Origin: a virus
Taxonomy: Duplodnaviria; Heunggongvirae; Uroviricota; Caudoviricetes
DNA length: 64,000 nucleotides
Direction: 5' to 3' (one strand)
Virus record (IMG/VR): IMGVR_UViG_2718218133_000001
A program made the translations under genes and the position numbers. Each line of letters opens with the position of its first letter. Positions within the stretch are counted from its first letter, which is position 1. A model generated the notes under the pieces. It saw only the letters and a program-made list of their open reading frames with translations, was not told the origin of the DNA and searched no databases. This document shows positions 31,801 to 63,990 of this stretch, one piece after another.

Positions 31801-34800
31801 GGCAGGAAACGATAGGTGATCCGGCGATAGTACAGGTCCATGTCAGTACATACGCGGTCCATATCCCTGATTATTGAGAAGATCGGACGGGCTTTCTCGT
31901 GCTCAATCACGCCGTCTTCATTGACCGAGGTCGTTACGCCATTGTTGGCTTTGGCCGCCGCTTCCGCCTGCTGACGTAATTCTTCATACGCCGCCAGTTG
32001 TTCTTCAGTAAGTGGTGCATCCTGCTGGTGCTCGTCCAGTTCCGGGATCTCCACGGTATCCTTAACGTCTTCCGCCGTTTTAAGCGTTGTCCAGCGATGG
32101 AATATGCCGCGCAGCGCATCAAGGTTTTCAAAGCCCACCAGCGCCATTTTTTCTTCAACTTCACCGCTGATTTTCTGTACCGTTTCCAGCCTGGTCTTGC
32201 CGAAGAATTTAACGAAGTCATCAGGACCGTAGATCCCCATCTTCTGCCAGTATTCCTTCGGCAGCACATGAGAAAGCATGTTGTATGCATCGATCGGGGT
32301 GTTAACGACTGGCGTTGCAGTCAGGAGAACCGGTCCGCGCCCACCATTCTTTTTCATCAGGTACGCGTTTTTAATTGCCATATCCCGCGCCGATTGCGCC
32401 ACCGCGCTGGTGGGCAGATAGGCCAGTTGTGACGCTTCGCGACCATTTTTATAGCTATTGCGGTAGTTGTGACCTTCGTCAGCGATCACACTATCGAAGC
32501 CCATATCCTCAAAGTACGGATACTTCTCTGCTTTTTCGGTGCCGGTATCTGAATACTCCGACAATACCCGGCGACGCGCGGCCTCTTTGCGGTGGGAGTC
32601 GGAGTCCATTGCGCTGGCTACGCGCCCGGCGGCAACGAAGTCATAAAGCATATCCTGTGCATGCTCATCTACGGTGTCATCACGTAGCGGAATGCGGGCG
32701 TATTGTTCTTTGGTAAACACGACTGCACGGTAATTTGAGTGCGGGATCGCGTTCATCCGCGCCGTGATAGTGGCTTCATCTGCCAGTTTTAGGGCATCGC
32801 GCATAACTGGAGTGCCATCAGTACCAAGAACAGGTTTACCGTTCTCATCGAGCACCGGCACCTGGCGAATCTGATCGCCATCCATCAGCACATCAAGACC
32901 GACGAACAGGTAGTTACTGAATGCCTCTTCACTCAGGAATTCTTTTGCTTCGTAATACCAGTTTTCCAGCACTGATTTAGGCACTACATACGCAGTACGG
33001 GTGGAGCGACCGTTCTCATAGTTGAACGCTTCAAGCGCCAGCGCGGTCGTAGTTTTACCCAGCCCGGTGCCGAAGCCCAGGATGCCGCGCCCATCTTCGG
33101 ACAGTCGGCGCACTTCGCTATTCTGGTAATCAAATGGCTGGCGCTTACCGCTTAATCCCTTCAACCCAAGCGGATCGCCAGAGTGTTCATACGGGATATT
33201 GCTATTGAACACATCGTTGTATTTGGCAACCAGTTCATCGTAGCGATCGTGCGTCTTGATCCACTTATTGAACTGGTCCTCAAGCAGTGCCATCTGCTCG
33301 CGGTAGCCGTTCGCCGTCGCGCTATCTTTGCCACCGATACGCGCACCATTGAGATACTTTTCCAGCTGTGCCGGGAACCCGGTCGCGTTTTCACCTGATT
33401 TACGGTCCCACTCGTAGCGGATCTCGCCTGTTTCTTTATCCTTGCGCTGGACAACACCGTATCGGTGCCCGACGAACAGACCATCACCACCGTGATAGGT
33501 GTCAGAAACCATTTCGTCGCCTTCCAGCTGCACTGACTGCACATAGCGAAGATCCGGATAGCCGTTTTCCTGCAAAAATTCCAGAATGACGGAACGGTCG
33601 AACCAACGGCTATTGAGCTTAAAGCGGATATTCTCTGCTGGCGTCTTGATGCGCTTCTCTTCGATCGCTGCCAGCTGATTAAGGACGTTGTTCTTTACTG
33701 GACCGTCGGGGAGTGTGGCAAGGAATTCCTGTTTTGGTGCCACTATCTCGTTAATGTCGCCGCTGGTGGCGCGGGCGAACGGAACAATCCCGCCATACGG
33801 TGAAACCGCAATGCCAGGGGTGCTGGCCAATAAATTAAGCAACTCTTCATCACTGGCTGGCAATTCGCCGGTAAACGCAAGGCGGAAATCATCGAGCTGG
33901 ATTGGATCGCGGGTAAGATCGCTATAGAGATAACGCAGGGTGTCCTGATAGCTGGTGGAGTCATAACTGGCGCTGGAATCATGCGTAACCAGCTTTCCTG
34001 TCAGCTCGTCAGAAATAGTGCCATCCAGCTTAATTGCACCACGGAAAGCAAACCAGGCGCGCGCACCGCTTCCCGATAATTTAGCTATCGGACCGCGACC
34101 AGGGTTACCAAAACGGTCAATCTCTGCCTGCAAACGGGATACCAGAGAAAGGCGCTGCTGTTCGATTTGTTCAGCACTATGCCCGGCGGCCTTCATATCC
34201 TGATATTCAATTAACATCCGGCCAATCATCGCCCCACGATACAAGCGTTCACGGTATTTTTCAGGCTGGCTGTTAATCCAGTCCACCAGCTGCACCATAT
34301 CGTCGCTGATTGATGTGGTGTACTTATCGCGGACGTTTGCCATCTGGGTAAATGTCATACCGAGACGGCCTTCTGTTGTAGTCAGGTTACGCTGAAGAGC
34401 CTCCCAGCTATCCGCGCCATAACTGGCAGCATCAATTTTAAGTTCCTTCCCGGCATCAGCTTCAATCCAGCGACCACCAGCATATTTTTGCCATACGCCA
34501 TTAATCAGGCGCATTTCCCCTTCACCAACAACGTCTGCGGTCGGTGACGGTTCAACCATATCGAGCAAAGACCAGTCGATACGGCTTTCGAAACGATGAA
34601 TCAGCTTCGCTTTAAGAGCCTGGTTATCAATCTGACCGTCGGCACGAACCTCAATACGCCCCTGGAAGCCCTTTTCCTGGGTGCCATGAACAAACCGGCG
34701 GCCATCCTTTTCAAACCACTTGCCAGAAATAAACGTTGGCCAAAGCACATTTGCCGATTCAAGAGTGCTTTCATCCACCAGGGGGATTTTCTCAGCCATC

Positions 34801-35633
34801 TCTGCCGGATGTTTGCGCATCAGCACCACATCTACGACCGTACTGGTCCCGTTTGCGTCAAAAGTACCGGTAGGCAAGCGGTGGGCACCAAGAAATTCAG
34901 CTTTCCGTGATAGGCGCAGGCGTAACCGCTTCATGTTTGAACCTGAAACAATGGACGGCGGCACAATCACGCACATGAATCCGCCTGGCTTTATCTTGTC
35001 CAGCATGCGGAGCATGAAGTAAGAACCCATGTCCGTTTCTTCTGCGTAAGGCTTATCGATGTTGCGTGTGTTATCACGACCGCCGAACGGAACGTTACCC
35101 ACAACATGGTCGAATGAATCGTTAGGTGTGCTTATAGCCAGCTGTTCGAACGGGGAAATCTGTACGCTGTCTTCCGGGTGTAACAACTGGTTTATACGAC
35201 CGGAAACACTGCTGATCTCAGTCGCGGTCATCACCGTACCAACCGGTTTTGTCTCATTAAAAACGCCGGTTCCCGCCGATGGTTCCAGAGTGTTACCTAC
35301 GTCCGCGCCGTAGAGCTTCATGATCTCCCAGACACCTTCAGCGATCGGCTTTGGTGTGTAATATTCGGAGACGGACCCGCCAATGCCGCCTTCACCGGTG
35401 TACCCAGCCAGGATCTGGCGCTGTTCATCTGTCAGTGTCGCGCCGTCCACCAGCGAATTAAGCAAATCTATCGCCTTCTGATTCGCCTCCCGGCGCAGTC
35501 GGTCATAGCTTTTGCCTTCCACCTTTTCCACGCCGTATTTAATCGGCGCTCGGTGAGATTTTATTGCCCTAATGTATTTCAATATTTCGCTGACACTTGA
35601 ACAGCGAAACACCCCCATAGATAGCTTGTTCAT
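28866..35633 (-). CDS. darB: DarB antirestriction protein (N6-adenine methyltransferase plus DEAH-like helicase domains)
   Basis: 2255-aa ORF, the length remembered for P1 DarB; MTase-like GNVPFG motif; helicase motifs GTGLGKT and VIADEGHNY. Confidence 0.9.
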   Translation of the reverse strand: MNKLSMGVFRCSSVSEILKYIRAIKSHRAPIKYGVEKVEGKSYDRLRREANQKAIDLLNSLVDGATLTDEQRQILAGYTGEGGIGGSVSEYYTPKPIAEGVWEIMKLYGADVGNTLEPSAGTGVFNETKPVGTVMTATEISSVSGRINQLLHPEDSVQISPFEQLAISTPNDSFDHVVGNVPFGGRDNTRNIDKPYAEETDMGSYFMLRMLDKIKPGGFMCVIVPPSIVSGSNMKRLRLRLSRKAEFLGAHRLPTGTFDANGTSTVVDVVLMRKHPAEMAEKIPLVDESTLESANVLWPTFISGKWFEKDGRRFVHGTQEKGFQGRIEVRADGQIDNQALKAKLIHRFESRIDWSLLDMVEPSPTADVVGEGEMRLINGVWQKYAGGRWIEADAGKELKIDAASYGADSWEALQRNLTTTEGRLGMTFTQMANVRDKYTTSISDDMVQLVDWINSQPEKYRERLYRGAMIGRMLIEYQDMKAAGHSAEQIEQQRLSLVSRLQAEIDRFGNPGRGPIAKLSGSGARAWFAFRGAIKLDGTISDELTGKLVTHDSSASYDSTSYQDTLRYLYSDLTRDPIQLDDFRLAFTGELPASDEELLNLLASTPGIAVSPYGGIVPFARATSGDINEIVAPKQEFLATLPDGPVKNNVLNQLAAIEEKRIKTPAENIRFKLNSRWFDRSVILEFLQENGYPDLRYVQSVQLEGDEMVSDTYHGGDGLFVGHRYGVVQRKDKETGEIRYEWDRKSGENATGFPAQLEKYLNGARIGGKDSATANGYREQMALLEDQFNKWIKTHDRYDELVAKYNDVFNSNIPYEHSGDPLGLKGLSGKRQPFDYQNSEVRRLSEDGRGILGFGTGLGKTTTALALEAFNYENGRSTRTAYVVPKSVLENWYYEAKEFLSEEAFSNYLFVGLDVLMDGDQIRQVPVLDENGKPVLGTDGTPVMRDALKLADEATITARMNAIPHSNYRAVVFTKEQYARIPLRDDTVDEHAQDMLYDFVAAGRVASAMDSDSHRKEAARRRVLSEYSDTGTEKAEKYPYFEDMGFDSVIADEGHNYRNSYKNGREASQLAYLPTSAVAQSARDMAIKNAYLMKKNGGRGPVLLTATPVVNTPIDAYNMLSHVLPKEYWQKMGIYGPDDFVKFFGKTRLETVQKISGEVEEKMALVGFENLDALRGIFHRWTTLKTAEDVKDTVEIPELDEHQQDAPLTEEQLAAYEELRQQAEAAAKANNGVTTSVNEDGVIEHEKARPIFSIIRDMDRVCTDMDLYYRRITYRFLPEYADAVQQLADSLPKQATSEDDDSDDSITQQSQYSLIDKGEFIQLQVPEAFEQEVNKRLARFGIDEQTVTHPVTPKYAKLIATLKEFFQEGKQIIFTDEKTQHQKLKRIICNALNLEPSKVGILNAQTVAEAGKTGKKLKAVKPPKELPDEPTDAQIAKYNEQMALYDAYIAQQNEMSLGGLEKIAADFQEGRTPIIICNKKAEVGINLHRGTTDIHHLTLPWTPASIAQRNGRGARVGSNRASVRVHYYCGKGSFDEYRLKTLKRKAGWISDILRSDKSEMENADANEMIEMQMYTAKDDGERLAMMQVQMDKAKAAQRARQKEQATIDLQNYIKAQHAAGEDVEVLTAELERSKAELEKTTAEVAKFKQAVMAKAADNADWKARWGSVHHTDRMLLAQYRASLKNAIQRKANISQAISRYEKLLNRTQKAATDIKRLRPLVEDAINKGILDVDPDLVNHASEFLVIGDRSWRVGQYYDCAGDIVRIKSLDFDSQRADVEIIFTFKGTKSGNWDVKTLDKQVDVTPDEDAVMQKISGGVSIAGINDIISCDDFYRFQQRGMIKITDSYGVQTTESGYSIDFVGTYTDPLKHAVYPDRRDGALKSSIAKWVLGMMSEGNNRQIRSAETFLVELFGSNYGDVIASYGDTLSPEAIQEKIADAIARMPEKTSQGATRNGDSELEVTNAIFGTNEFRASDYEITTAQFGTIGIYSNKDEIKQSMDAASARIAAERKANLNHAVSALTQSWVTAIREAATTGKITPAIADVVNDGSKFMDAYKMDAVQLPSAYGQLSYRMTYNLVSMFSDLAILGLVDLNEVTPELLSMRKNHVEILQRINTVLAGRTDEEKQADADRINLALGNITEEEIAARNEKQEELSSIQGDATSIAQSLGLNYRVSTADLKMMYAPKFAAGEVFGLQEASGMKGVLFRAKDAIKAKFGARWLPAKAKNSDFPGNWWIIETKHNLADVLAVIQQYA

Positions 35634-50632: not shown

Positions 50633-51205
50633 TTACAGCTCAGATTGAGTTTGGCGCTTCTCTACAGGATGATAACGATAAATCGTCGATACACCGATAT
50701 CGTAAATAATTGCCAACTGTTTCCTGCTGTAGCCATTTTCGATCAACCTCGCTATTTGCTCATGTTGTTCTTTTGTCAACTTCGGGCGACGTCCGCCAAT
50801 GCGTCCCTGTTCGCGTGCAGCTGCCAGTCCGGCCAGTGTTCTCTCAACAATTAATTCACGTTCCATTTCTGCTAAAGCCCCCATGACGTGAAAAAAGAAA
50901 CGCCCCATGGGTGTTGATGTGTCAATACTGTCTGTCAGACTACGGAAATTAACACCTTTTTCCCGCAACTCCTCTATAAGCGTGATAAGGTGTTTCATAC
51001 TTCTGCCAAGCCTATCCAGCTTCCAGACAACCAGCGTATCTCCTTCTGATAACGTTCTGAGCAGCTTTTTCAAGCCTGGTCTGGCTGACTTTGTTCCGCT
51101 TATTTTATCTTCAAAAATCAGTTCACATCCTGCGCAGTTCAGTGCATTTCTTTGTAAATCTGTGTTTTGGTCATTTGTTGACACACGAATGTAGCCAATT
51201 TGCAT
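50633..51205 (-). CDS. cin: Cin/Min-family serine DNA invertase
   Basis: From the ATG at 51203-51205: MQIGYIRVSTNDQNTDLQRNAL..; resolvase catalytic domain plus C-terminal HTH; adjacent to the first crossover site. Confidence 0.9.
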   Translation of the reverse strand: MQIGYIRVSTNDQNTDLQRNALNCAGCELIFEDKISGTKSARPGLKKLLRTLSEGDTLVVWKLDRLGRSMKHLITLIEELREKGVNFRSLTDSIDTSTPMGRFFFHVMGALAEMERELIVERTLAGLAAAREQGRIGGRRPKLTKEQHEQIARLIENGYSRKQLAIIYDIGVSTIYRYHPVEKRQTQSEL

Positions 51206-51259
51206 GAAAAACAACCTCTTTGTTTAGTTAAAAATACATCGTTGGTATAGGTAGGGATT

Positions 51260-51285
51260 AAGACTAAAACGTTGGTTTGGGGGAA
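51260..51285 (+). repeat. invertase crossover site 1 (hix/gix-like)
   Basis: ..aaaacg-TT-ggtttgggggaa; resembles the hix core AAAACC-AA-GGTTTTT; conserved half-site GGTTTGGGGGAA. Confidence 0.55.
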
Positions 51286-51752
51286 GGCTCTGCATTGCCT
51301 GTTGGTGTACCTGTTCCATGGCCCTCAGCCACACCACCAACGGGGTGGCTAAAATGTAACGGAGCAGCATTTTCTTCTGAAAAGTACCCAAATCTGGCAA
51401 AGGTTTACCCAACGTTAAAATTACCTGATTTACGCGGTGAGTTTATCCGTGGTTGGGATGATGGGCGCGGGGTGGATGCGGGACGTGCTTTATTGAGCAT
51501 TCAGACAGGAATGCTGGAAAAGCACCGACATATTGTTGTAGCCAATGATGGTTACGACACAAAAGATGAATGGGAGCTGGCGACAATTTTCAAAAAAACA
51601 TACACACAAGGACGGGGCTTGATGCCTCAAATACAGGAGGGAATTTGATTCCATCACCGACACTTCATTCTCGAGGGAGTATTGGTAATACTGGCGGGAG
51701 TGAAACCCGTCCACGAAATATCGCATTTAATTACATCGTAAGGGCGGCATAA
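51277..51752 (+). pseudogene. tail-fibre variable cassette 1 (frameshifted)
   Basis: Conserved N-terminal module GEGSALPVGVPVPWPSATPPTGWLKCNGAAFSSE.. in frame 1 (track ORF 51277..51648); conserved C-terminal ETRPRNIAFNYIVRAA only in another frame (track ORF 51570..51752). Confidence 0.45.
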
Positions 51753-51771
51753 AAACGTTGGTTTGGGGGAA
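51746..51771 (+). repeat. invertase crossover site 2
   Basis: Same core aaaacg-TT-ggtttgggggaa. Confidence 0.55.
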
Positions 51772-52260
51772 GGCTCTGCATTGCCTGTTGGCGTACCTGT
51801 TCCGTGGCCATCAGCCACACCTCCAACGGGGTGGCTGAAATGCAATGGTGCAGCATTTTCTTCTGAAAAGTACCCAAATCTGGCAAAGGCTTATCCCACC
51901 AATAAATTACCGGATTTACGGGGAGAATTTATTCGTGGCTGGGATGATGGGCGTGGCATTGATCCTAGACGTGCCTTGCTAAGTCTTCAGAATGGAGGAG
52001 TGGAATCACACACCCACCAAGGGCAGCTCTTCAGAGTTAGTGATTATCGTACAAATGAAATACCAGCATCAGAAGTTATGGGAAGAAACTATCTTGCAAG
52101 CCTGACGCCGGGTGCTAATAGCCCACTTGATTTTGATGATTATCCTGTAGCTCTTATTCCAAATGGATATTTTGTCGGGAATCAGAGAACAACAGCATAT
52201 GGGATAAATGAAACCCGTCCACGGAATATTGCATTTAATTACATCGTAAGGGCGGCATAA
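51763..52260 (+). CDS. tail-fibre variable cassette 2 (promoterless 3' gene segment)
   Basis: Starts in-frame inside the crossover site with no ATG; conserved N- and C-terminal modules, unique middle. Confidence 0.6.
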   Translation: MGEGSALPVGVPVPWPSATPPTGWLKCNGAAFSSEKYPNLAKAYPTNKLPDLRGEFIRGWDDGRGIDPRRALLSLQNGGVESHTHQGQLFRVSDYRTNEIPASEVMGRNYLASLTPGANSPLDFDDYPVALIPNGYFVGNQRTTAYGINETRPRNIAFNYIVRAA

Positions 52261-52279
52261 AAACGTTGGTTTGGGGGAA
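52254..52279 (+). repeat. invertase crossover site 3
   Basis: Same core. Confidence 0.55.
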
Positions 52280-52699
52280 GGCTCTGCACTGCCTGTTGGT
52301 GTGCCCGTTCCGTGGCCCTTAGAAACACCACCAACGGGCTGGCTAAAATGTAACGGAGCAGCATTTTCTTCTGAAATGTATCCCAAACTGGCAAAAGCCT
52401 ACCCCACCAATAAATTACCGGATTTACGCGGTGAATTTATCCGTGGCTGGGATGATGGGCGCGGGATTGATGCGGGACGTACCCTGCTTTCAGGGCAGGA
52501 TGGTACAAGTTTTTCTCATTACGGAGGTAATTTCGACATTGGGTCTGGTCATTCAATCAATAACTATGACCAAATTGTTTCTAACCAACCAGGATTTTCC
52601 CGTTTTTCATTTGCAGGGCCTTCACGAGGTGATGGGGTTAATTATGTAACCATTCGTCCTCGTAACATTGCGTTTAATTATATCGTAAGGGCGGCATGA
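52271..52699 (+). CDS. tail-fibre variable cassette 3
   Basis: As cassette 2; different central segment. Confidence 0.6.
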   Translation: MGEGSALPVGVPVPWPLETPPTGWLKCNGAAFSSEMYPKLAKAYPTNKLPDLRGEFIRGWDDGRGIDAGRTLLSGQDGTSFSHYGGNFDIGSGHSINNYDQIVSNQPGFSRFSFAGPSRGDGVNYVTIRPRNIAFNYIVRAA

Positions 52700-52718
52700 A
52701 AACGTTGGTTTGGGAGAA
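52693..52718 (+). repeat. invertase crossover site 4 (variant half-site GGTTTGGGAGAA)
   Basis: Same core with one substitution. Confidence 0.5.
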
Positions 52719-53207
52719 GGCTCTGCATTACCTGTTGGTGTCCCTGTTCCGTGGCCTTCAGCCACTCCGCCAACAGGCTGGCTGAAATGCAACGGTGCGG
52801 CTTTTTCTGCTGAAGAATACCCGGAACTGGCAAAGGCTTACCCGACAAATAAATTGCCTGATTTACGTGGTGAGTTCATTCGTGGCTGGGATGACGGGCG
52901 CGGGATTGATCCAGGTCGCTCTATTTTAAGCGAGCAAGGATATGCAACGGAGGATCATGCTCACGGATTACCGTCAAAATCAACCGTAGCAACTGACAGC
53001 TCAATTAATTTCTACTTTGACGAGGCATGGGCTACTAGTGGTAATACGGGAGTTATCAGATGGGGGAACACAAGCGATGCAGGATTGCCAGCCCCTAATT
53101 ATGGAACTTTTAAAACATATAAACAGTCCGTAGCTAATTTAGGTACTGCTGGCTTAGAAACCCGCCCTCGTAATATTGCATTTAATTATATTGTGAGGGC
53201 GGATTAA
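52710..53207 (+). CDS. tail-fibre variable cassette 4
   Basis: As cassette 2; different central segment. Confidence 0.6.
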   Translation: MGEGSALPVGVPVPWPSATPPTGWLKCNGAAFSAEEYPELAKAYPTNKLPDLRGEFIRGWDDGRGIDPGRSILSEQGYATEDHAHGLPSKSTVATDSSINFYFDEAWATSGNTGVIRWGNTSDAGLPAPNYGTFKTYKQSVANLGTAGLETRPRNIAFNYIVRAD

Positions 53208-53212
53208 TTATA

Positions 53213-53824
53213 TCAACTGGCTGTAGAAAGTTGTTTTTCAGGCCAGTTGAGATCTGGTGCCGTGGTTAAATCCATCGCGTTCAGCTCGTCTATATAATCT
53301 AGCACGGAGTTAAGCTGCGTGGTTTCTGCCTGCGTCAACTTCCGTCCAGCCCGTAATTTCAACTGAATCAGACTAATGGAATCCATCGCAGTATCAATCA
53401 ATGACTGACGTTTTGTTTCTGCTGCCTCTACAGCTGCACTATGTTGAGCCTCAGTATCAACCACCCATTTCTCTCCATCCCATTTGTCGTATGGTGTTAG
53501 CGGGGCGATAGTGGTTGTATTTTCCGGATAGTCACCCAACACCGTGATTTCTTCGGGATTCCCTGTGTCAATGCTATAGACAGTTTCGCCACGATGATCT
53601 GGCACATACTCCCATGAACTTAAATCCTCTGAACGGAGAATCGCATAACCTGCTTTATGTGAGCCTGGAGCATCCAAACAAGAATGTGCCGGAATACCAA
53701 CGCCAACAGCAAGATATTCAGTTGATGCAGAAATATATTCCCGATTACCACCATCATAGTTATAAACGATAATGTTTCCTGCCTGTATGGCTATAAGTTC
53801 GCTATTTAATATCGCATTATCCAT
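53213..53824 (-). CDS. U: tail fibre assembly protein (U-like)
   Basis: 203-aa ORF whose ATG overlaps the cassette 5 stop (TAATG coupling); Tfa-like composition. Confidence 0.7.
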   Translation of the reverse strand: MDNAILNSELIAIQAGNIIVYNYDGGNREYISASTEYLAVGVGIPAHSCLDAPGSHKAGYAILRSEDLSSWEYVPDHRGETVYSIDTGNPEEITVLGDYPENTTTIAPLTPYDKWDGEKWVVDTEAQHSAAVEAAETKRQSLIDTAMDSISLIQLKLRAGRKLTQAETTQLNSVLDYIDELNAMDLTTAPDLNWPEKQLSTAS

Positions 53825-54282
53825 TATGCTGCTCTCACAATATAATTGAAGGCAATGTTACGTGGGCGGGTTTCATTCCCCCCAGATAACTCCGTTCTGT
53901 ATTGACTGGTAAATTTACCATTAATCGCTCCTTCTTGGACGGCGTTATCTGTCGACAACAGGCTATCCCCCCCTCTGTCATTTGGCACCAATACCGTGTT
54001 ATCCCACGCGTCCCATGACCGAATATTATGATAATGACTTCCTGTTAACCACCCCTGTATGCTTAAGATGACCCTTCCCGCATCCACACCTCGCCCATCA
54101 TCCCAACCACGGATAAACTCACCGCGTAAATCAGGTAATTTTAACGTTGGGTAAACCTTTGCCAGATTTGGGTACTTTTCAGAAGAAAATGCTGCGCCAT
54201 TGCATTTCAGCCACCCCGTTGGAGGTGTGGCTGATGGCCACGGAACGGGCACGCCAACGGGCAGTGCAGAGCCTTCCCCCAA
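53824..54282 (-). CDS. tail-fibre variable cassette 5 (minus orientation, coupled to U)
   Basis: Same conserved N- and C-terminal modules on the minus strand, starting inside crossover site 5. Confidence 0.6.
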   Translation of the reverse strand: MGEGSALPVGVPVPWPSATPPTGWLKCNGAAFSSEKYPNLAKVYPTLKLPDLRGEFIRGWDDGRGVDAGRVILSIQGWLTGSHYHNIRSWDAWDNTVLVPNDRGGDSLLSTDNAVQEGAINGKFTSQYRTELSGGNETRPRNIAFNYIVRAA

Positions 54283-54299
54283 ACCAACGTTTTATGCCG
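54274..54299 (-). repeat. invertase crossover site 5 (inverted orientation)
   Basis: Reverse complement of the core: ttcccccaaacc-AA-cgtttt. Confidence 0.55.
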
Positions 54300-54717
54300 C
54301 CCTTACGATGTAATTAAATGCAATGTTACGAGGACGATGGTTACATATTACGACCATCAATCGTGAATGTCCAGTATAATGAAAAACTCAATAATTCCGT
54401 CTTAGGCTGTAGATAATACTTGTCATAGTTATGATTGAATGACCAGACTCAATGTCGAAATTACCTCCGTAAAGAAAACAATATGTCTGATCCTGCCATT
54501 CTGAATAGCAGTACGTCCAGATCAATCCCCGCCCATCATCCCAGCCGCGATAAATTCACCCGTAAATCCGGTAATTTATTGTGGGTAGCCTTTGCCAGTT
54601 TGGGATACTTTCAGAAGAAAATGCTGCACCGTTGCATTTCAGCCACCCCGTTGGAGGTGTGGCTGATGGCCACGGAACGGGCACGCCAACAGGCAGTGCA
54701 GAGCCTTCCCCCAAACC
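54300..54717 (-). pseudogene. degenerate variable cassette currently joined to the S constant region
   Basis: Paralogue of cassette 3 with multiple single-base deletions; reading frame from the constant part stops at 54556 after ..AAFSSE-SIPNWQRLPTINYRIYG. Confidence 0.55.
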
Positions 54718-57135
54718 AAGGTAATTAAGAACGCTCTGAATACTGGGCTTACTAAGAATTGCACGTCCAACACTTGTCAGTGCAGTTAACGCGGCACGAT
54801 CAACCCCTGTGAAATAAGGGAGTTTATCTGCTGCGGTAGCTAGTGCCGCTAGAGCAGTGAGCGTAGCGTCTGCCGCTTGCTTTCCATTAGCCAAATCATA
54901 TGCAGCCTTGACAGCTTTCGGTGTAGCGGCCAGCACTTCAGACGTGCTGTTAGTGGCACTACTGAGCTGAGTGATGCCTTTCGCTGTCAATGAAGCTGTT
55001 GGCACACCAGTAATCTGATTCCAGGGATGTGTATGACTGGATGGTGCTTTTTCGGCTGCTAGATCGTATGCAGCTTTAACCGCTTTTGGCGTTGCAGCTA
55101 ATGTTTCAGAAGTGCTGTTGGTGTCGCTACTGAGCTGAACTATCCCTTTTTGTGTCGTGGTTGCATCCTGGGCTGTATACTTCCCGTTAGCCAGGTCATA
55201 TGCAGCCTTGACAGCTTTCGGTGTGGCGGCCAGCACTTCAGACGTGCTGTTAGTGGCACTACTGAGCTGAGTGATGCCTTTCGCTGTCAATGAAGCTGTT
55301 GGCACACCAGTGATCTGATTCCAGGGATGTGTATGACTGGATGGTGCCTTTCCGGCTGCTAGATCGTATGCAGCTTTAACCGCTTTTGGCGTTGCAGCTA
55401 ATGTTTCAGAAGTGCTGTTGGTGTCGCTACTGAGCTGAACTATCCCTTTTTGTGTCGTGGTTGCATCCTGGGCTGTATACTTCCCGTTAGCCAGGTCATA
55501 TGCAGCCTTGACAGCTTTCGGTGTGGCGGCCAGCACTTCAGACGTGCTGTTAGTGGCACTACTGAGCTGAGTGATGCCTTTCGCTGTCAATGAAGCTGTT
55601 GGCACACCAGTGATCTGATTCCAGGGATGTGTATGACTGGATGGTGCCTTTCCGGCTGCTAGATCGTATGCAGCTTTAACTGCTTTTGGCGTTGCAGCTA
55701 ATGTTTCAGAAGTGCTGTTGGTGTCGCTACTGAGCTGAACTATCCCTTTTTGTGTCGTGGTTGCATCCTGGGCTGTATACTTCCCGTTAGCCAGGTCATA
55801 TGCAGCCTTGACAGCTTTCGGTGTGGCGGCCAGCACTTCAGACGTGCTGTTAGTGGCACTACTGAGCTGAGTGATGCCTTTCGCTGTCAATGAAGCTGTT
55901 GGCACACCAGTGATCTGATTCCAGGGATGTGTATGACTGGATGGTGCCTTTCCGGCTGCTAGATCGTATGCAGCTTTAACCGCTTTTGGCGTTGCAGCTA
56001 ATGTTTCAGAAGTGCTGTTGGTGTCGCTACTGAGCTGAACTATCCCTTTTTGTGTCGTGGTTGCATCCTGGGCTGTATACTTCCCGTTAGCCAGGTCATA
56101 TGCAGCCTTGACAGCTTTCGGTGTGGCGGCCAGCACTTCAGACGTGCTGTTAGTGGCACTACTGAGCTGAGTGATGCCTTTCGCTGTCAATGAAGCTGTT
56201 GGCACACCAGTGATCTGATTCCAGGGATGTGTATGACTGGATGGTGCCTTTCCGGCTGCTAGATCGTATGCAGCTTTAACCGCTTTTGGCGTTGCAGCTA
56301 ATGTTTCAGAAGTGCTGTTGGTGTCGCTACTGAGCTGAACTATCCCTTTTTGTGTCGTGGTTGCATCCTGGGCCGTATACTTCCCGTTAGCCAGGTCATA
56401 TGCAGCCTTGACAGCTTTCGGTGTGGCGGCCAGCACTTCGGACGTGCTGTTAGTAGCACTGCTGAGCTGAACTAATCCCTTTTGCGTTGTGCTTGCATCC
56501 TGCGCCGTATACTTGCTTTTCGCCAGATCGTAGGCTTTTTTAACTGCCAGCGAACTTGCAGCGACATCACTTCTGGTACTGGTTACAGAGTCGGAAATTT
56601 CAATGCCTATCGTGAGATCGATGCGGTCGGATACATCTATCATTTCCTGAGTAATAGCAGATACGCCAGCAGGGATATTCACCGTACAAACAAGCAGTTC
56701 CCCATCTCCTAACTGATATGAATCGGTATAGGTTCTGGCAACAAATTCAGCTGCATGAATATGTGACGCGGTATTCACCTGATAGGTATCTTCTCCAAGA
56801 AGGTATCTTCCCTTCAGCACAATTGCATATTTCTTGCCTGCGTTAAGTGCAAGAGAGATATCCTTACGATGCTGAATAGTTACCTGGTAGAATTCACCAA
56901 TATCCACTGACGCCGCGCCAGCGGTTTTATCTCCATCCACTGAGGTGATTAACAGGTTCATCCCACCGCCAGGCTTAGGCAAGAAACCAGCATAAAATCC
57001 CGGGTCAACAATTCCCCTGAATTTTCGGTTTAGAGCGGCTGACAGATATGGTTCGTGGTATTGCACATCAGCCACCAGAGCCAACGACTCGGGTGATGGG
57101 TAAGTAACCGATGTAACAACTGTAACGTCATTCAT
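54556..57135 (-). CDS. S: tail fibre protein S, constant part plus fused degenerate cassette
   Basis: Likely start MNDVTVVTSV (the track ORF extends to 57222); about five 100-aa repeats with HTHPWNQITGVP motifs; ends in the crossover-site-encoded LGEGSALPVG. Confidence 0.8.
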   Translation of the reverse strand: MNDVTVVTSVTYPSPESLALVADVQYHEPYLSAALNRKFRGIVDPGFYAGFLPKPGGGMNLLITSVDGDKTAGAASVDIGEFYQVTIQHRKDISLALNAGKKYAIVLKGRYLLGEDTYQVNTASHIHAAEFVARTYTDSYQLGDGELLVCTVNIPAGVSAITQEMIDVSDRIDLTIGIEISDSVTSTRSDVAASSLAVKKAYDLAKSKYTAQDASTTQKGLVQLSSATNSTSEVLAATPKAVKAAYDLANGKYTAQDATTTQKGIVQLSSDTNSTSETLAATPKAVKAAYDLAAGKAPSSHTHPWNQITGVPTASLTAKGITQLSSATNSTSEVLAATPKAVKAAYDLANGKYTAQDATTTQKGIVQLSSDTNSTSETLAATPKAVKAAYDLAAGKAPSSHTHPWNQITGVPTASLTAKGITQLSSATNSTSEVLAATPKAVKAAYDLANGKYTAQDATTTQKGIVQLSSDTNSTSETLAATPKAVKAAYDLAAGKAPSSHTHPWNQITGVPTASLTAKGITQLSSATNSTSEVLAATPKAVKAAYDLANGKYTAQDATTTQKGIVQLSSDTNSTSETLAATPKAVKAAYDLAAGKAPSSHTHPWNQITGVPTASLTAKGITQLSSATNSTSEVLAATPKAVKAAYDLANGKYTAQDATTTQKGIVQLSSDTNSTSETLAATPKAVKAAYDLAAEKAPSSHTHPWNQITGVPTASLTAKGITQLSSATNSTSEVLAATPKAVKAAYDLANGKQAADATLTALAALATAADKLPYFTGVDRAALTALTSVGRAILSKPSIQSVLNYLGLGEGSALPVGVPVPWPSATPPTGWLKCNGAAFSSESIPNWQRLPTINYRIYG
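54706..54731 (-). repeat. invertase crossover site 6 at the 3' end of the S constant region
   Basis: ttcccccaaacc-AA-ggtaatta; left half-site differs from the cassette sites. Confidence 0.55.
54880..56470. repeat. tandem array of about 5.3 x 300-bp near-identical coding repeats inside S
   Basis: The 60-bp lines at 55201, 55501, 55801 and 56101 are identical or differ by a single base (the 55501 line has an extra T-to-C); the 54901 copy is slightly diverged. Confidence 0.85.
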
Positions 57136-57146
57136 CAAGCATATCC

Positions 57147-57581
57147 TTATGCTGTAGTCGAGTTTATGGCCATAACTGCGGTATATGTTTTGCCCACATA
57201 CAGCGAGTCTTCCTGGACACAAATAATGGCGATTGGCTTATTCTCGTTATCCAGAACAACCAGAGTGTTGAATGGGTAGTTTTTCCCTTCCTGCAACTGA
57301 CTTTGATCAAGGTCCATTCGGACAGTAATTATCCCGCCTGAGTAGGTTGGGACGAGGTTGATGGTGCAAAATTGACTGGTCAGTTCTGCCAGATCGAAAG
57401 CCTTTGGCAGTTCTCCAATCTCATAAGTGCCATCTCCTTTCTTAGTAACCAGTGAACTGGTACCGAAAACGGCCTTGCTGATTAAAAATCGAGAGCCTTT
57501 GTTAATGGACGATTCAGCGCGCCGCTGATAGTAATAGTCCAACAACTGACTCTTATAGAGGTTTGTTGAGACGTCAGACAT
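57147..57581 (-). CDS. tail-fibre-region protein (P1 R position)
   Basis: 144-aa ORF immediately upstream of S. Confidence 0.45.
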   Translation of the reverse strand: MSDVSTNLYKSQLLDYYYQRRAESSINKGSRFLISKAVFGTSSLVTKKGDGTYEIGELPKAFDLAELTSQFCTINLVPTYSGGIITVRMDLDQSQLQEGKNYPFNTLVVLDNENKPIAIICVQEDSLYVGKTYTAVMAINSTTA

Positions 57582-57631
57582 GATTTTCCCTAATCAATGT
57601 TGTGAAGCCTCATTGTAAGATAAGTAACTTG

Positions 57632-57656
57632 TCACCCCGCCCTGCGGACGGGGTGA
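57632..57656 (-). terminator. GC-rich hairpin (weak terminator-like)
   Basis: caccccgcc-ctgcg-gacggggtg; no strong U-run. Confidence 0.3.
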
Positions 57657-57659
57657 TTG

Positions 57660-58379
57660 TCACGCATCGCTATCCAACAGCAAATCATCTGCGCGGGTGC
57701 GATCAAACGTAGGCGTTGCTTTCACAATAGTGCCACCAGGCGTTGCGGTGATCGGGGCGCTAATCGACGTAACTCCAGTAAGCGAAGTTGTATCCGAAGT
57801 TTCAAACCAGCAGAATGCTTTTTCGGTATCAGAAATCTCGTTCAAAGTGATCATGTCGGCCTGTTCATTTACAACAACCGACAAATAGAGCGTAAGCCCA
57901 TCAAACACTATATGCAGTGGCAGTAGAGGCTTTACGAACTGATTAAACTTTCTGAGAATTTCTTCTGTAATTGCGGACTGATCTATCGTTCCAGTAATAC
58001 CCATTGTCCGGGCCAGGTCGTTTATGGGAATACTGATCATTCCTCTGGAAGTCAGAAACATCTCGCCGAATGTGCCGCCGGTGGTTTCCAGTGTGCTTTC
58101 TGGAATCAGGACCGTACCATAGGGATGACGTTCAAAGTCCACCGGAGCATATATGGGATCCCATAAAACCGATATACCGTTAAATTCGCGATAAATTGTC
58201 TGGTTTATAGGGCGTTCAGTGCCCTTAAAATGGATCTCATCAAACCGCTGTTGTAGCAACATCGGAACGGAAGATGAATTCGACGTTCTGATAGTAAAAA
58301 ACTGGCCAAGTTCATTTGTCCTGGTCTCCAGATCCTCCTTGCTCATGGAGAAAATAGACTTCCGGTTGGTAGTCAACAA
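57660..58379 (-). CDS. baseplate-region structural protein (P1 gene 16 position)
   Basis: 239-aa ORF in the tail/baseplate block. Confidence 0.4.
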   Translation of the reverse strand: MLTTNRKSIFSMSKEDLETRTNELGQFFTIRTSNSSSVPMLLQQRFDEIHFKGTERPINQTIYREFNGISVLWDPIYAPVDFERHPYGTVLIPESTLETTGGTFGEMFLTSRGMISIPINDLARTMGITGTIDQSAITEEILRKFNQFVKPLLPLHIVFDGLTLYLSVVVNEQADMITLNEISDTEKAFCWFETSDTTSLTGVTSISAPITATPGGTIVKATPTFDRTRADDLLLDSDA

Positions 58380-59912: not shown

Positions 59913-60268
59913 AGCACCACGTCCTGTGTGATAGTTATATCCCTGATACGAATGGATATTTTCAACTTATCAAAAGCATCTCCCTCGGCTACTGACAAGC
60001 CAGAAATCGGTATGTCAGGTAAATCTACCGTCAGTTTTTGCAACAGCATTGCCTCAACCGCAATTTGAACATGCGACAAGTTGGTCGGTTCGTGTTTAAA
60101 CTGCGGTAAAACATTGCCCCATGACGGATCTCCGTATACCTCACCCTGATAAGTGTTTAGCCACTCATATAAACGAGCGCCCCAGGCCTCCTCCTGGGAC
60201 TCATACGTTTTTACGCCGGATAACTCCAGCGTCAGCAAAGGATCAATTTCGTTATTGTTGGCCATCAA
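59909..60268 (-). CDS. baseplate wedge protein (GPW/gp25-like)
   Basis: 119-aa ORF overlapping the sit stop. Confidence 0.45.
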   Translation of the reverse strand: MMANNNEIDPLLTLELSGVKTYESQEEAWGARLYEWLNTYQGEVYGDPSWGNVLPQFKHEPTNLSHVQIAVEAMLLQKLTVDLPDIPISGLSVAEGDAFDKLKISIRIRDITITQDVVL

Positions 60269-63200
60269 TCAACTCTCGCGTAGTCATTCATCAACGGATC
60301 ATCAATTGACAGTGGTACCGTGCGCATAACGCCCGGCTGAGGCGTGCTGACCTTTACGACAGTTCCCTGGCCTTTCGCCGAGTCTTTGGTGTGCTCTTCA
60401 ATCCTGGCAAGCAATGAGGTCATCTGCGCAAACAGCCGCTTCGTTTCACCATCAAGTGAAACGGTATTATCAGCCAACTGCATTGTCGGCTTGGCACCGG
60501 AACCGCCAAGGTCACTAATAACCTGCCCGTCTATCTGCATACGACCGGTTGGTTGCTGCAAATCGTTGGCGACAGTCGTCATCTGGGACGTGGAAGCTGG
60601 TTGAGGAGAATTATTTGAGCGCATTCCCCGGGCATTAATGAGTTTGTCATACAGTCCATCAATCCCCATTTGTGCGCCGAGCTGGTCAAAGTAACTTGAG
60701 TTGTTGGCCACCGGACGTGCCTCTTCAACTGGCATAGGTGTATCAACATACACATTGCCAGCTGCCGTTGCGGTTCCCCTTCCTCGTGCACGTTCTTCGA
60801 GGGTTCCCTGGACGACTTCCCGACGCATCCCCCGGCCATTCATGAATTTGTTGACCAGATCGTTAACGCCAACAGCATTGCCGATTTTGTCTACCAGACC
60901 GCCTTTCTCAAACGGGCTATCACCAGGGGTAAACGCCAGACCAGTAGACTGATCGATAACAGCGTTATCAGGCAGTGGTCCCCTCACTCCATATTGCGCC
61001 CCACCCTGTGCTCCTGCCCCAGGTGTATAGATTTCACCACCTAAATAGCGAGCACGATGAGTATTGACCTTGATCGCGTACTCACGGTTTTCTTTCGATA
61101 AGTCACCTGTGCCTTTTTTCCACTTATTGATAGTGCCAAACCCTGCGTTATATGCAGTGATGGCCTCGTTTAAGTCTCCATTGGCTTGCTTCAGATACTT
61201 GCTCATGAGAAGAGCCGCAGCTTCTGCCGATTTCACAGGATCAAATGCATCCTGTTCCGATATCCCTGTCTCTTTACGAGCAATACTCGTGAACTGGAAC
61301 ATCCCGAGTGCGCCACCACTTAACTTTCCATCTGGTGATCTTGTAAGCGGAGACTTTGCGTTAGGATCCCCTCCTGATTCAGTTGCAGCAATCGCGTAAA
61401 GAGTGCCTTCTGGAAGACCATATTTATTCTCTAGTTCAGCAAAATATGGAGCCAACTTATCGAGATTTGCCTTACCTTCAGCGCCAAGACTTCCTACTTT
61501 TACATCCAAGTTGCCATTGTTGTAGGTATCCGCAGCTTTCTGAATATCATTCCTGGTTCCAGTAGTATTACGCGACGATGATGACGAGCTATTTTGACCA
61601 ATAGCTTTATCAATTTTCTGCAACGCGCTATTGCCCGTTTCTACAGCATTTGCATTGATTATCTGATTGGCAGTTTCTTTAACTGTTTTATTGCTATCTT
61701 TCGCCGTATCTAGAGATGCATTTACAACACGAGTGACAATATTAGCCTTTTTAGAGGTATATTCAGTCTTAGGAGCATTGTCCTCCTGACGTTCTTTAGC
61801 AGGTGTTTTTAATTCAGGTGTAACCTCTTTCGCATCCGCTTTATTGACTAGCTTTGATGCAACCCAGGCCACTGGGGTGCTCTGAACAGCGGCATCTGCA
61901 ACCTCACCTGAAAGCTCTTTTGCGGCACTCCATAGATTACTGCCAGCTTCTTTAATGTATTTCCCTGGGTTCTTAATGAAATCAATTGCACTATCAATTG
62001 CATCACTGAAAACCTTTTTCAGGTTATCGACAGTAAAGAAGTCTTTGATGGCGTCTAATTTTTCGTTCAGACTCTTGGTTGTGTCACTGAACCAGGCTGA
62101 AATAGCATCGCCAATCTTGGCTGTGTAATCGTTGAATGTTGTGGATATGGTGTCACCAAGGTTAGAAATATATGTTTCTAAATTGGTAATCCCACTATCA
62201 ATGGCCTGGGCAATACTTTCCGTCGAAAATGATTGCAACATATTGCCGATATCCTCAAATCCAAGTGATTTGAGAACGCCACCAATGGCATTGCTAATAC
62301 CAGATACCAGTCCTCCCATATCGAGAACGTTAGCCAGTGTATAAGCCGCTTTTTGCTGAAAAGATGGATCTTCCCCATCCTTAAGCCCAAAGGTCCGACG
62401 TTGTGCTTCTGTATCATTCCAACCGGTTACCGCATCATAGATACCTCCAGCCACCGTGCCGACTAGCGGAATTGCGCGTAAAGCCCCCTTTGCAAAAGCC
62501 TTAACACCTAGTTTCTCCAATCCCTTAGTTGCAAGTTTTCCGGCACCGCGAGTAGCCAATTCGCCAGCTTCTTTGGCAGCAGCTTTTTTCCCACCAAAGC
62601 CCAATAAGCTTGCAACTTTTTTTATACCTAAAGCGCCTAGTGCCATCGAGCCAACTTTCTTTAGTGCCCCACGGCCAAAAATAAGGGAAGCAATACCACC
62701 GGCCCCCTTCCCTAACAGGCTAAATAATTTGGACAGCAAGCCGCCCTTCTTTTTCCCGGTGTTTTTGGCTATCTGATCAAGGGCGCTGAGAATCTTGTCA
62801 TTGCCCTCTTTAATTTCGCTGGTCTGATCCTGAAGTTCCTGAACCGTCCGTTTTTGGGTGTTAACCTGAACGACATCGGCACTATTTTGCGATTTACGCC
62901 TAAAAAAACCTTTTCTACGGCTGTTATCGTCATTGCCACGAATCACATCGGCAATAGACTTTCTGGCGCCATTAAGCGATCCACCAACTTCTTTTGATAT
63001 CCCGCCAAGCTCCTTCCCTGCTGCCCACAATGGACCAGCAACGGCATAACCTAACGCATCGACGGCACGAGTCTCTGAAGGGTTACCTATGCCTTCAGCT
63101 ACTTTTGACAGTTTTTTTAATAAACCTGATTCAGCATTTAGACGCTCATCATCCTCTTTGCGCCTGGCCTTTTCAGCACGTTCAGCACGGGCATCTTCCG

Positions 63201-63990
63201 CTGCGGCCTTACTCCCTGACTTTCCAATAAAACGACCACGCGCATCGCGTTGGTTTTGGCTTTTTTGCGCACCGCCTTTTTGATCGAACATTTCGCGAGC
63301 GTGTTCGGCTGCTTCGGTCCGTTGTGCCTTTATATCCTCTGATATAGCCTTCCTGCGTCTTTTTTTACCCTTTGGTGTAGTTGATTTGGCCTGCTGTTCC
63401 TGTTGAGCAATGCCCTCCTGAACTACACGAGAAACGTCCCCTAAATTAAGCCGTTTCATTGCGTCAACAATAGGGTCTACTGATGGCGCATTGGCCACAA
63501 AGTCTGGCCGGGAATTTTCGATTGTTCGATTTAATGCCGACACACTGCGAGATACTGGGTCAACCGTTGCAACGCGTTCCCCTTTCAAATCACGAGCGAG
63601 TTTGACCGTTTCTAACCGCTGTGCTTTAACATCCTCTGTTATTGCCTCTCTTCGTCTATTTGGGGGATTGTGCGCTGTTGGTGCAGCCTGCTGTTCACGG
63701 TTAGTGACTTTGTCCTCCCGTATACGAGAAGCGTCCCCTAAATTAAGCCGTTTCATTGCGTCAACAATAGAGTCCACTGATGGCACATTGGTCACAAAGT
63801 CAGGACGTGAATTTTCGATTGTGCGATTTAATGCCGACACACTGCGAGAGACAGGATCAACAGTTGCAACTCGTTCCCCTTTCAAATCTTCAACAGCTTC
63901 CCGAATACCTGCAAGCTCTTCCAGCTCTTTCGCGCTGGCGGTTTCAACTGTCCTTATAACATCGTCAATATTGGCGTTTTTTCTTTCCAT
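60265..63990 (-). CDS. sit: Sit-like tape-measure/injection protein with C-terminal lytic transglycosylase domain
   Basis: 1241 aa; Gly/Ala-rich segments; SLT motifs AIAATESGG..GMFQF..AYNAG; duplicated 55-aa motif near the N-terminus. Confidence 0.8.
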   Translation of the reverse strand: MERKNANIDDVIRTVETASAKELEELAGIREAVEDLKGERVATVDPVSRSVSALNRTIENSRPDFVTNVPSVDSIVDAMKRLNLGDASRIREDKVTNREQQAAPTAHNPPNRRREAITEDVKAQRLETVKLARDLKGERVATVDPVSRSVSALNRTIENSRPDFVANAPSVDPIVDAMKRLNLGDVSRVVQEGIAQQEQQAKSTTPKGKKRRRKAISEDIKAQRTEAAEHAREMFDQKGGAQKSQNQRDARGRFIGKSGSKAAAEDARAERAEKARRKEDDERLNAESGLLKKLSKVAEGIGNPSETRAVDALGYAVAGPLWAAGKELGGISKEVGGSLNGARKSIADVIRGNDDNSRRKGFFRRKSQNSADVVQVNTQKRTVQELQDQTSEIKEGNDKILSALDQIAKNTGKKKGGLLSKLFSLLGKGAGGIASLIFGRGALKKVGSMALGALGIKKVASLLGFGGKKAAAKEAGELATRGAGKLATKGLEKLGVKAFAKGALRAIPLVGTVAGGIYDAVTGWNDTEAQRRTFGLKDGEDPSFQQKAAYTLANVLDMGGLVSGISNAIGGVLKSLGFEDIGNMLQSFSTESIAQAIDSGITNLETYISNLGDTISTTFNDYTAKIGDAISAWFSDTTKSLNEKLDAIKDFFTVDNLKKVFSDAIDSAIDFIKNPGKYIKEAGSNLWSAAKELSGEVADAAVQSTPVAWVASKLVNKADAKEVTPELKTPAKERQEDNAPKTEYTSKKANIVTRVVNASLDTAKDSNKTVKETANQIINANAVETGNSALQKIDKAIGQNSSSSSSRNTTGTRNDIQKAADTYNNGNLDVKVGSLGAEGKANLDKLAPYFAELENKYGLPEGTLYAIAATESGGDPNAKSPLTRSPDGKLSGGALGMFQFTSIARKETGISEQDAFDPVKSAEAAALLMSKYLKQANGDLNEAITAYNAGFGTINKWKKGTGDLSKENREYAIKVNTHRARYLGGEIYTPGAGAQGGAQYGVRGPLPDNAVIDQSTGLAFTPGDSPFEKGGLVDKIGNAVGVNDLVNKFMNGRGMRREVVQGTLEERARGRGTATAAGNVYVDTPMPVEEARPVANNSSYFDQLGAQMGIDGLYDKLINARGMRSNNSPQPASTSQMTTVANDLQQPTGRMQIDGQVISDLGGSGAKPTMQLADNTVSLDGETKRLFAQMTSLLARIEEHTKDSAKGQGTVVKVSTPQPGVMRTVPLSIDDPLMNDYARVD
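63430..63890. repeat. about 155-bp imperfect direct duplication inside sit
   Basis: Copies at about 63436-63590 and 63732-63886 (about 90% identical), encoding DLKGERVATVDPVSRSVSALNRTIENSRPDF. Confidence 0.6.

Follow-up and report, generated by a model that had tools for sequence, protein, structure and literature searches.

The window, by which we mean the whole 64,000-nucleotide stretch of DNA analysed here (IMG/VR record IMGVR_UViG_2718218133_000001, Caudoviricetes), carries a tandem array of 300-nt units in the constant part (Sc) of the tail-fibre gene S of a P1/p15B-like phage-plasmid. The features of this locus are summarized in Table 1. Positions 56389-57700 showed 94.7% DNA identity to P1 R/S, and the S protein opens with MNDVTVV... 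like that of P1 (shared start, MNDVTVVTSVTYP). The order LPs, R, S, chaperone, invertible segment and invertase is present as in the P1-type operon, and Baseplate_J, SLT/Sit-like and DarB-sized ORFs lie close to the S region. In the S product, Pfam recognized 12 Phage_fiber_2 (PF03406) stretches (726.9 bits against a gathering cut-off of 22, E = 7.1e-225). A preliminary description, made from the letters of the DNA without database searches, had placed the repeats inside tail-fibre gene S, and the P1 match, the shared start, R and LPs upstream and the 12 fibre matches bear this out. Many records are related to the window in mosaic fashion, and no plasmid or E. coli record matched it at 99% or above across the length of the region.

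Table 1. Features of the S locus, from the late promoter to the invertase (positions in the window)
Feature	Position	Strand	Basis or remark
Late-promoter stretch	57603-57638	-	36 of 36 bases equal to the P1 stretch containing LPs
Gene R homologue, directly upstream of S	57147-57581	-	ORF, P1 match
S N-terminal part, P1-like	56515-57135	-	ATG at 57135; mosaic patch at gene nt 428-578
A0, older single 132-nt fibre-repeat element	56383-56514	-	Occupies position of P1 'repeated element a1'
Tandem array (TRF call)	54880-56470	-	TRF, repeat search, direct count
Five units in coding register	54883-56382	-	U1 56382-56083, U2 56082-55783, U3 55782-55483, U4 55482-55183, U5 55182-54883
Connector, array to variable tip (KQAADATLTALA...SVLNYLGLGEG)	54720-54882	-	Translation
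Crossover-type site, Sc/first cassette junction (TTGGTTTGGGGGAAGGCTC)	54701-54719	-	Site search; one of six
Cassette now fused to Sc	54288-54700	-	At least 10 single-base indels against intact relatives
Intact promoterless tip cassette (Collar and short-tail-fibre receptor-binding domain)	53824-54287	-	Crossover-type site 54269-54287
Tail-fibre assembly chaperone (Caudo_TAP)	53213-53824	-	Pfam
Four inverted tip cassettes, each opening with crossover-type site and Collar	51272-53207	+	51272-51648, 51758-52260, 52266-52699, 52705-53207
Serine DNA invertase (Resolvase and HTH_7)	50633-51214	-	74% identical to P1 Cin

TRF called a single array (period 300, 5.3 copies, 98% matches, 0% indels, score 3091), and a repeat search of the window placed the starts of the 300-nt copies, in register, at 54880, 55180, 55480, 55780 and 56080. 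By direct count, plus-strand copies 2-5 differ pairwise by 0-2 bases, copies 2 and 4 being exactly equal, while plus-strand copy 1, the edge copy, is 8-9 bases off the other four; the trailing 91 nt of the array have 3 mismatches against the unit start. Overall, the units are 97-100% identical across 300 nt, and because exact duplicates of this length are beyond chance, the array is real. The array is coding on the minus strand, in frame, and each unit is translated into a 100-aa block that includes KAPSSHTHPWNQITGVPTASL and two fibre repeats; for the plus strand, the ORF list of the window contained no ORF of 60 aa or more within the array. These results agree with the preliminary description, which had reported about five near-identical 300-bp repeats at the same coordinates, the closeness of copies 2-5 and a 100-aa block with fibre repeats and the same motif in each unit.

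Each unit consists of an element A (44 aa, one fibre repeat) and an element B (56 aa, an SHTHPW linker and one fibre repeat), the cores of which are 75% identical. The HxH motif in the linker occurs once per unit, at 100-aa spacing. The additional 0.3 copy in the TRF count is due to A0. When only the first six relatives were considered, all with 1, 3 or 5 units, a true period of 600 nt, with copy numbers always odd, was hinted at; this was ruled out by relatives with four units (L009 and L012) and with two units (L014 and L016).

The tip of the fibre is encoded by a separate, exchangeable part of the locus. Six crossover-type sites were found (four on the plus and two on the minus strand), together with six Collar-domain tip cassettes, one of them degraded. 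The presence of more than two sites, in both orientations and at the 5' ends of cassettes, with a serine invertase, places the locus among multiple-inversion (Min/shufflon-like) systems, and the invertase is predicted to be able to exchange the receptor tip among six alternatives. In related strains and their derivatives, different cassettes are fused to Sc. The S gene of the window is of the p15B/Min-like multi-cassette type. The Min multiple-inversion tail-fibre system of plasmid p15B was reportedly described by Sandmeier, Iida and Arber in the early 1990s; the likeness to Min lies in the six crossover-type sites, the short promoterless 3' cassettes in both orientations, the one chaperone gene and the Cin-related invertase adjoining S. 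P1-like plasmids with Min-like invertases have also been reported (PMC6906374).

In P1, Sc is annotated with tandem 'repeated elements' a0, a1, b1 and b2 (GenBank M81956, NC_005856). The two S genes have in-frame tandem duplications of shaft modules at the same place, directly behind the N-terminal domain, and the P1 element a1 (132 nt, 44 aa, KYTAQDASTTQKG) corresponds to A0 and A of the window. However, P1 S combines a single 'a' element with two 'b' units of 222 nt that lack an HxH motif, whereas the window S has the 300-nt AB unit five times. Megablast gave no match between the array and reference P1, in which the 300-nt unit is absent. The repeat content of reference-P1 Sc (a0, a1, b1, b2) is not that of the window, where AB units replace the b elements, and since only the a-type element is common to both, the window S represents a variant allele class rather than the reference-P1 type.

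Copy number was compared among relatives. In complete plasmids with the same flanks (n = 16), 1, 2, 3, 4 or 5 units were found, and the five-unit layout of the window recurred in L001, L004, L005, L006, L011 and L099-L102. Database proteins had the form A0(AB)n with n = 3-6 regular units, 90%-identity protein clusters being unreliable for such a census as variants differing only by copy number may be merged in them. Irregular forms (AABB..., AABBBBBBAB, AABAABAABA) were also present in the database, and one protein had 10 HxH motifs. The variation in copy number between isolates that had been anticipated from the sequence is thus found among natural alleles. The representative proteins containing relatives of the unit numbered 2763, a single protein having as many as 16 matched stretches, and periodic HxH motifs occur in distant relatives as well. 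In the fibre of Yersinia phage vB_YpM_39, a single A+B pair adjoins a P1 b-type element, which makes AB a portable shaft module. Literature searches retrieved no description of copy-number polymorphism of the S array.

The order of unit haplotypes was h36 h02 h37 h02 h04 in the window and h02 h02 h03 h02 h04 in L001. The array of L006 (h13 h14 h13 h14 h15) is a 600-nt higher-order duplication, and that of L016 (h02 h11) equals both ends of the L004 array, which fits a deletion of three units. Some arrays carry SNPs in every unit (270A in L012; 93T/228T/243C/270A in L013; 171T in L011), and the last unit invariably has 288T/289T/297T/300A. The mean difference between internal units was 1.70 nt inside an array and 3.43 nt from one array to another, the sampled arrays being mutually related and not independent. 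Eighteen of the 25 variable sites in the units are synonymous. Hybrid B elements with an A-type tail exist, which shows exchange between the A and B cores.

Because SNPs are common to all units of one array and the edge unit is divergent, these patterns support concerted evolution through unequal recombination. The array has in-frame units, a copy number that is polymorphic among homologous alleles, within-array homogenisation and a divergent edge unit, the properties of a coding VNTR maintained by such recombination. The preliminary description had read the near-identity of the copies as recent expansion or ongoing concerted evolution; of these, the latter is upheld, while a recent expansion in the window isolate need not be assumed, as the five-copy allele is common to other plasmids (e.g. 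L001, with the same five-unit order and an equal last unit) and stable on re-sequencing. An identical array (u02 u02 u06 u02 u07) was present in the clinical strains 2020N21-110 and 2022N21-074 and in three isolates apparently derived from them, as judged by isolate names. The same array was found in a Hungarian cattle plasmid, being identical between plasmids from Taiwan and Hungary. Since arrays did not differ between parent strains and their apparent derivatives, nor from one continent to another, change in the array is not fast.

The preliminary description had also warned that such arrays tend to be collapsed or expanded by assemblers, and indirect support for this came from IMG/VR draft contigs, which end at the A0/A junction (L029, L033, L035, L036) or inside the array (L023, L025), while most of the remaining contigs of the same type show one unit only. 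Together with a local cluster of indels that the window shows directly downstream of the array, these breaks could mean that the count of five is itself an assembly artefact, by expansion or collapse, and that the source array had another size. We consider this unlikely: the five-unit layout recurs in many independent complete plasmids, U1, U3 and U5 carry distinguishing SNPs, all of which recur in the units of further plasmids, and there were zero indels against L009 over 3021 nt covering the array, the N-terminus and R. Moreover, both assemblies of strain 405 appear to have five units, as judged by BLAST match spans. It is somewhat less improbable, though still doubtful, that the element is defective, with S a pseudogene and the array a decaying relic without present function. 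Because of the indels in the fused cassette, the assembled S stops at 54556 (859 aa), and 17 bp are deleted from the gene 16 homologue at 58372, so that the element may be defective and the array perhaps not under selection now. On the other hand, the 812 codons of Sc, the five units among them, form an open frame free of indels, unit variation is mostly synonymous, and inversion could join any of five other apparently intact cassettes to Sc. Cassette-level frameshifts were also seen in L004, L006, L100 and L102, which fits consensus errors where inversion states are mixed in the population.

Perfect 300-nt repeats and many natural alleles might also be expected of a fast, programmed phase-variation (contingency) locus, with copy number switching at high frequency within a culture like the invertase. 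The frequent switching of such a locus was not seen among the strains compared, and this reading is very unlikely: the two related clinical strains and their three apparent derivatives share one array though the cassette fused to Sc differs, and the unrelated cattle plasmid has it too. Chi-driven recombination was considered and rejected, as all 45 Chi sites in the window lie at or before position 47000 and none is in or near the array, which likewise argues against programmed switching. The units could further be ligand-binding modules that raise avidity for a surface carbohydrate, and not spacers, since some fibres bind ligands through repeated domains of knob or lectin-like type (PMC6116203). 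This is highly improbable here, because units of one array or of different arrays hardly vary and change mostly at synonymous sites, unlike diversifying receptor-binding regions; Mu S and many further fibres have this fibre repeat in their shafts, and it is visibly the exchangeable Collar/tip cassettes that confer specificity.

We regard it as very probable that a 100-residue shaft module in Sc of a P1/p15B-like phage-plasmid S gene has truly been amplified in tandem, and in frame, to give the array. In the S protein, the P1-type N-terminal domain is followed by A0, the five AB units, the connector and a tip cassette exchangeable by the invertase. As the units are 97-100% identical, out-of-register homologous recombination or replication slippage could add or remove whole units, always in frame, and out-of-register exchange would also keep the units alike. 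Unequal exchange could in this way generate the natural allele series from 1 to 6 or more units.

Each unit plausibly lengthens the shaft of the homotrimeric fibre, by which the tip is joined to the baseplate anchor; a rough figure scaled from T4 fibres would be about 5 nm of shaft per unit. The AlphaFold2 monomer model of A0 and two units was unusable (pLDDT 39.5, pTM 0.24), and a sequence search of solved structures with the unit matched nothing but the one fibre repeat in Mu S, none of the structures covering the HxH linker of B. Phage Mu S (PDB 5YVQ, 9KI1, 8JU3) has one Phage_fiber_2 repeat in common with the unit (E = 6e-7 to 7e-8), and its fibre tip is likewise switched by an invertase; it differs in that its repeat stands alone, without HxH linker or array, and in its N-terminus. 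In solved trimers of fibres and spikes, three HxH motifs coordinate one buried iron (His6-iron site; PMC6116203). By analogy, each HxH motif of the array may form a buried His6 metal (iron) site, the likeness of SHTHPW to the His6-iron sites of T4 gp37, R1/R2 pyocin fibres and P2 gpV being at the motif level only.

Among known repeat variations in fibres, the myovirus EfV12-phi1 also has in-frame tandem duplications of variable copy number in a tail-fibre gene; they lie upstream of its binding domain and were resolved only by long reads. Its units measure 1.8 kb, appeared de novo in a matter of days during coevolution and are heterogeneous within a population, whereas the window array has 300-nt units, with standing variation among plasmids and stability in re-sequenced strains. 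The S array is a real but fairly ordinary fibre-shaft length polymorphism and no new kind of system.

As a tentative and rather improbable extension, the AB array could be a selectable dial of reach that acts jointly with the invertase switch of six cassettes. The displayed tip would then be the choice of the invertase, the number of units (1 to 6 or more) would set its distance from the baseplate, and P1-like phage-plasmids could adapt to differing depths of O-antigen or capsule. Periodic HxH-metal sites would hold the three chains, with their near-identical repeats, in register during folding.

In practice, P1-like phage-plasmids are tracked because they carry resistance genes, and their assembly from short reads is easily caught out by the array, where contigs break or collapse; the automatic annotation "tail fiber protein" conceals its copy-number polymorphism. 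Knowledge of the array could be of use in engineering P1-based delivery vectors. The natural S alleles form a ladder with the same type of N-terminal domain and the same connector, in whole steps of 100-residue units, which could be used to examine fibre length against adsorption on rough, smooth or capsulated hosts and the need for HxH sites in assembly.

Tandem Repeats Finder reported a single array at 54880-56470 (period 300, 5.3 copies, 98% matches, no indels), and a repeat search located five in-register copy starts at 54880, 55180, 55480, 55780 and 56080. In a base-by-base comparison, plus-strand copies 2-5 differed pairwise at 0-2 positions, copy 2 being exactly identical to copy 4, and copy 1 differed from the remaining copies at 8-9 positions. 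An ORF search found no ORF of at least 60 aa on the plus strand within the array; the array is held by a minus-strand ORF, which starts with the ATG at 57135, begins with MNDVTVVTSV... and is open across every repeat. This ORF contains 12 Phage_fiber_2 repeats (Pfam, E = 7e-225) and the start of a Collar domain, and has a P1-like R/S flank. The finding of the preliminary description, nearly identical tandem repeats of about 300 bp inside the tail-fibre gene S with copies 2-5 identical or almost so, is therefore real, and its interpretation is supported. In the array, a shaft module, the AB unit (300 nt, 100 aa), has been amplified in frame; it follows an older single A-type element (A0). At the DNA level the A core is about 75% identical to B's repeat core, and the AB unit is therefore an old duplication in its own right.

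Layout of gene S, its upstream neighbour and the tip region in the window
Feature	Position	Strand	Remarks
R	57147-57581	-	upstream neighbour of S
S N-terminal region	57135-56515	-	P1-like
A0	56514-56383	-	44 aa, one fibre repeat
Five AB units	56382-54883	-	each A (44 aa, KYTAQDATTTQKGIVQLSSDTNSTSETLAATPKAVKAAYDLAAG) and B (56 aa, KAPSSHTHPWNQITGVPTASLTAKG then second fibre repeat)
Connector	54882-54720	-	ends ...YLGLGEG
Receptor tip cassette of S	below 54720	-	variable
Crossover-type sites of two cassettes	54269-54287 and 54701-54719	-	54701-54719 is the junction with the constant part of S (Sc)
Caudo_TAP chaperone gene	53213-53824	-	only chaperone gene of the module
Four cassettes	start 51272, 51758, 52266, 52705	+	each opens with a crossover-type site
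Serine invertase	50633-51214	-	74% identical to P1 Cin

The sample for copy number was 16 complete plasmids or phage records with the same flanks as the window array. As had been predicted, copy number varies between isolates: one AB unit is present in the relatives' loci L003 and L015, two in L014 and L016, three in L002 and L013, four in L009 and L012, and five in L001, L004, L005, L006, L011 and the window, and the differences are in frame in every case. The 120 best database proteins include regular A0(AB)n forms with n up to 6; irregular arrangements (AABBABAB..., AABBBBBBAB, AABAABAABA), one protein with 10 HxH motifs and hybrid B elements with an A-type tail are also found in this set. 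Relatives of the AB unit were detected in 2763 representative proteins (E <= 1e-3; up to 16 matched stretches each), and in some of them HxH motifs recur periodically with another spacing. In Yersinia phage vB_YpM_39, the fibre contains a single A+B pair beside a P1 b-type element and after a different N-terminus, so that AB is a portable shaft module which P1/p15B-like lineages have amplified.

Unequal homologous exchange has left its marks on the copy-number polymorphism. In coding order, the 300-nt unit haplotypes are h36 h02 h37 h02 h04 in the window, h02 h02 h03 h02 h04 in L001, and h02 h02 h10 h02 h11 in L004 and L005; the two units of L016 (h02 h11) are those at either end of the array in L004, as a loss of three units would produce, and the array of L006 (h13 h14 h13 h14 h15) is a 600-nt duplication. 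Internal units differ on average by 1.70 nt within arrays versus 3.43 nt between arrays, and 18 of the 25 variable sites of the unit are synonymous. Some SNPs are common to all units of one array (L012, L013, L011), and one set of four substitutions recurs at the 3' end of every last unit; these are classic signs of homogenisation sparing the edge repeat. Both singleton variants of the window, at unit positions 9 and 102, recur in units of other plasmids, and are therefore not random errors. The window and L001 have the same unit order, last unit and connector but differ in a patch of S, so that the five-unit allele is one in circulation which has moved between backgrounds. Thus, of the earlier proposal of recent expansion or concerted evolution, the homogenisation signs favour the latter, and a fresh expansion in the window's isolate is not needed. 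The array is identical in two Taiwanese clinical strains, three isolates apparently derived from them (by names) and a Hungarian cattle plasmid, and the cassette fused to Sc differs among these assemblies; the array thus changes much more slowly than cassettes are switched.

Within its 150 nt, the patch (nt 428-578 of S; window 56558-56708) differs from L001 by 19 SNPs, R-S being otherwise identical, and matches L003 and L012, which are themselves different elsewhere. The N-terminal part of S is a recombination mosaic on a fine scale.

Downstream (50633-54719), a crossover-type site (…AAACGTTGGTTTGGGGGAAGGCTC…) occurs six times, in each case at the 5' end of one short cassette. Five cassettes have an intact Collar domain, with ends ...RPRNIAFNYIVRAA or a close variant, and the single cassette tested was related to the T4 gp12 and gp37 tips; the sixth, fused to Sc, is degraded. 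This layout is Min/shufflon-like, whereas the P1 C segment is two-state; we take it to resemble the Min system of plasmid p15B (six sites).

The expectation that assemblers collapse such arrays was supported by IMG/VR contigs of the array type: six stop either at the A0/A junction (L029, L033, L035, L036) or within the repeats (L023, L025), and most others show one unit only, as would be expected if short-read assemblies break or collapse here. Two points argue that the five units of the window are correct: the SNPs that set its units apart, and the many independent assemblies with five units. Assemblies also break systematically at a second place, the invertible segment; draft viral contigs very often end at the Sc/cassette crossover site (…VLDYLG or …YLGLRELGTSG…; L020, L021, L030 and many P1-type loci among L042-L097).

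The fused cassette (54288-54700) has at least 10 single-base indels relative to L001, by which S stops at 54556, and no indels were found over the 3021 nt of the array, N-terminus and R compared with L009. We suspect consensus errors from a mixture of inversion states; similar breaks occur at the same place in public assemblies L004, L006, L100 and L102. Real decay is possible, as a 17-bp deletion (58372, relative to L005) is also present in the P1 gene 16 homologue (a tail tube or baseplate gene), leaving a 239-aa ORF versus 278 aa in relatives. Given this deletion, the phage-plasmid element may be defective.

Megablast identified the window as a P1-like phage-plasmid: over 56389-57700 (R and the N-terminal part of S) it is about 95% identical to P1 and P7, and the array has no match in either. 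Bases 57603-57638 are identical to a 36-nt segment of P1 that includes the late promoter LPs. The P1 annotation places "repeated element a1" at the position that A0 has in the window, along with a0 and a pair of 222-nt b elements, so gene S was already known to have tandem repeats in Sc. However, P1 S has no HxH-bearing B element, which the window has in every AB unit. The array is of a known kind, being both a set of tandem shaft repeats in gene S and a polymorphic coding repeat; no description of the AB copy-number series in P1-like S was found in the searchable literature, and the series would be unsurprising to a specialist. Related sequence occurs in 544 plasmid records and, among 5426 complete E. 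coli genomes, in 934.

Since tail fibres are homotrimers, each AB unit should lengthen the shaft. T4 half-fibres measure about 70 nm for about 1290 residues, and scaling from them suggests a gain of about 5 nm per unit. By analogy with T4 gp37 and R-pyocin fibres, where HxH motifs form His6-iron sites (PMC6116203), the HxH motif of B probably forms such a site on the trimer axis, giving one metal site per AB unit; a sequence search of solved structures found none covering the B linker. Adaptive copy-number change in a tail-fibre gene has an experimental precedent in Enterococcus phage EfV12-phi1 (PMC6365445).

Near S there are also homologues of the gp6/Baseplate_J protein and of the Sit-like transglycosylase (tape-measure ORF at 60265-63990, 1241 aa versus 1140 aa in reference P1). 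A 2255-aa ORF with N6 methyltransferase and SNF2/helicase domains (28866-35633) is presumably the size of the P1 antirestriction protein DarB. The last 17 kb of the window has no Chi site (GCTGGTGG), and 45 lie at 1835-46998 versus about 2 expected from shuffles; high Chi density is a known property of P1.
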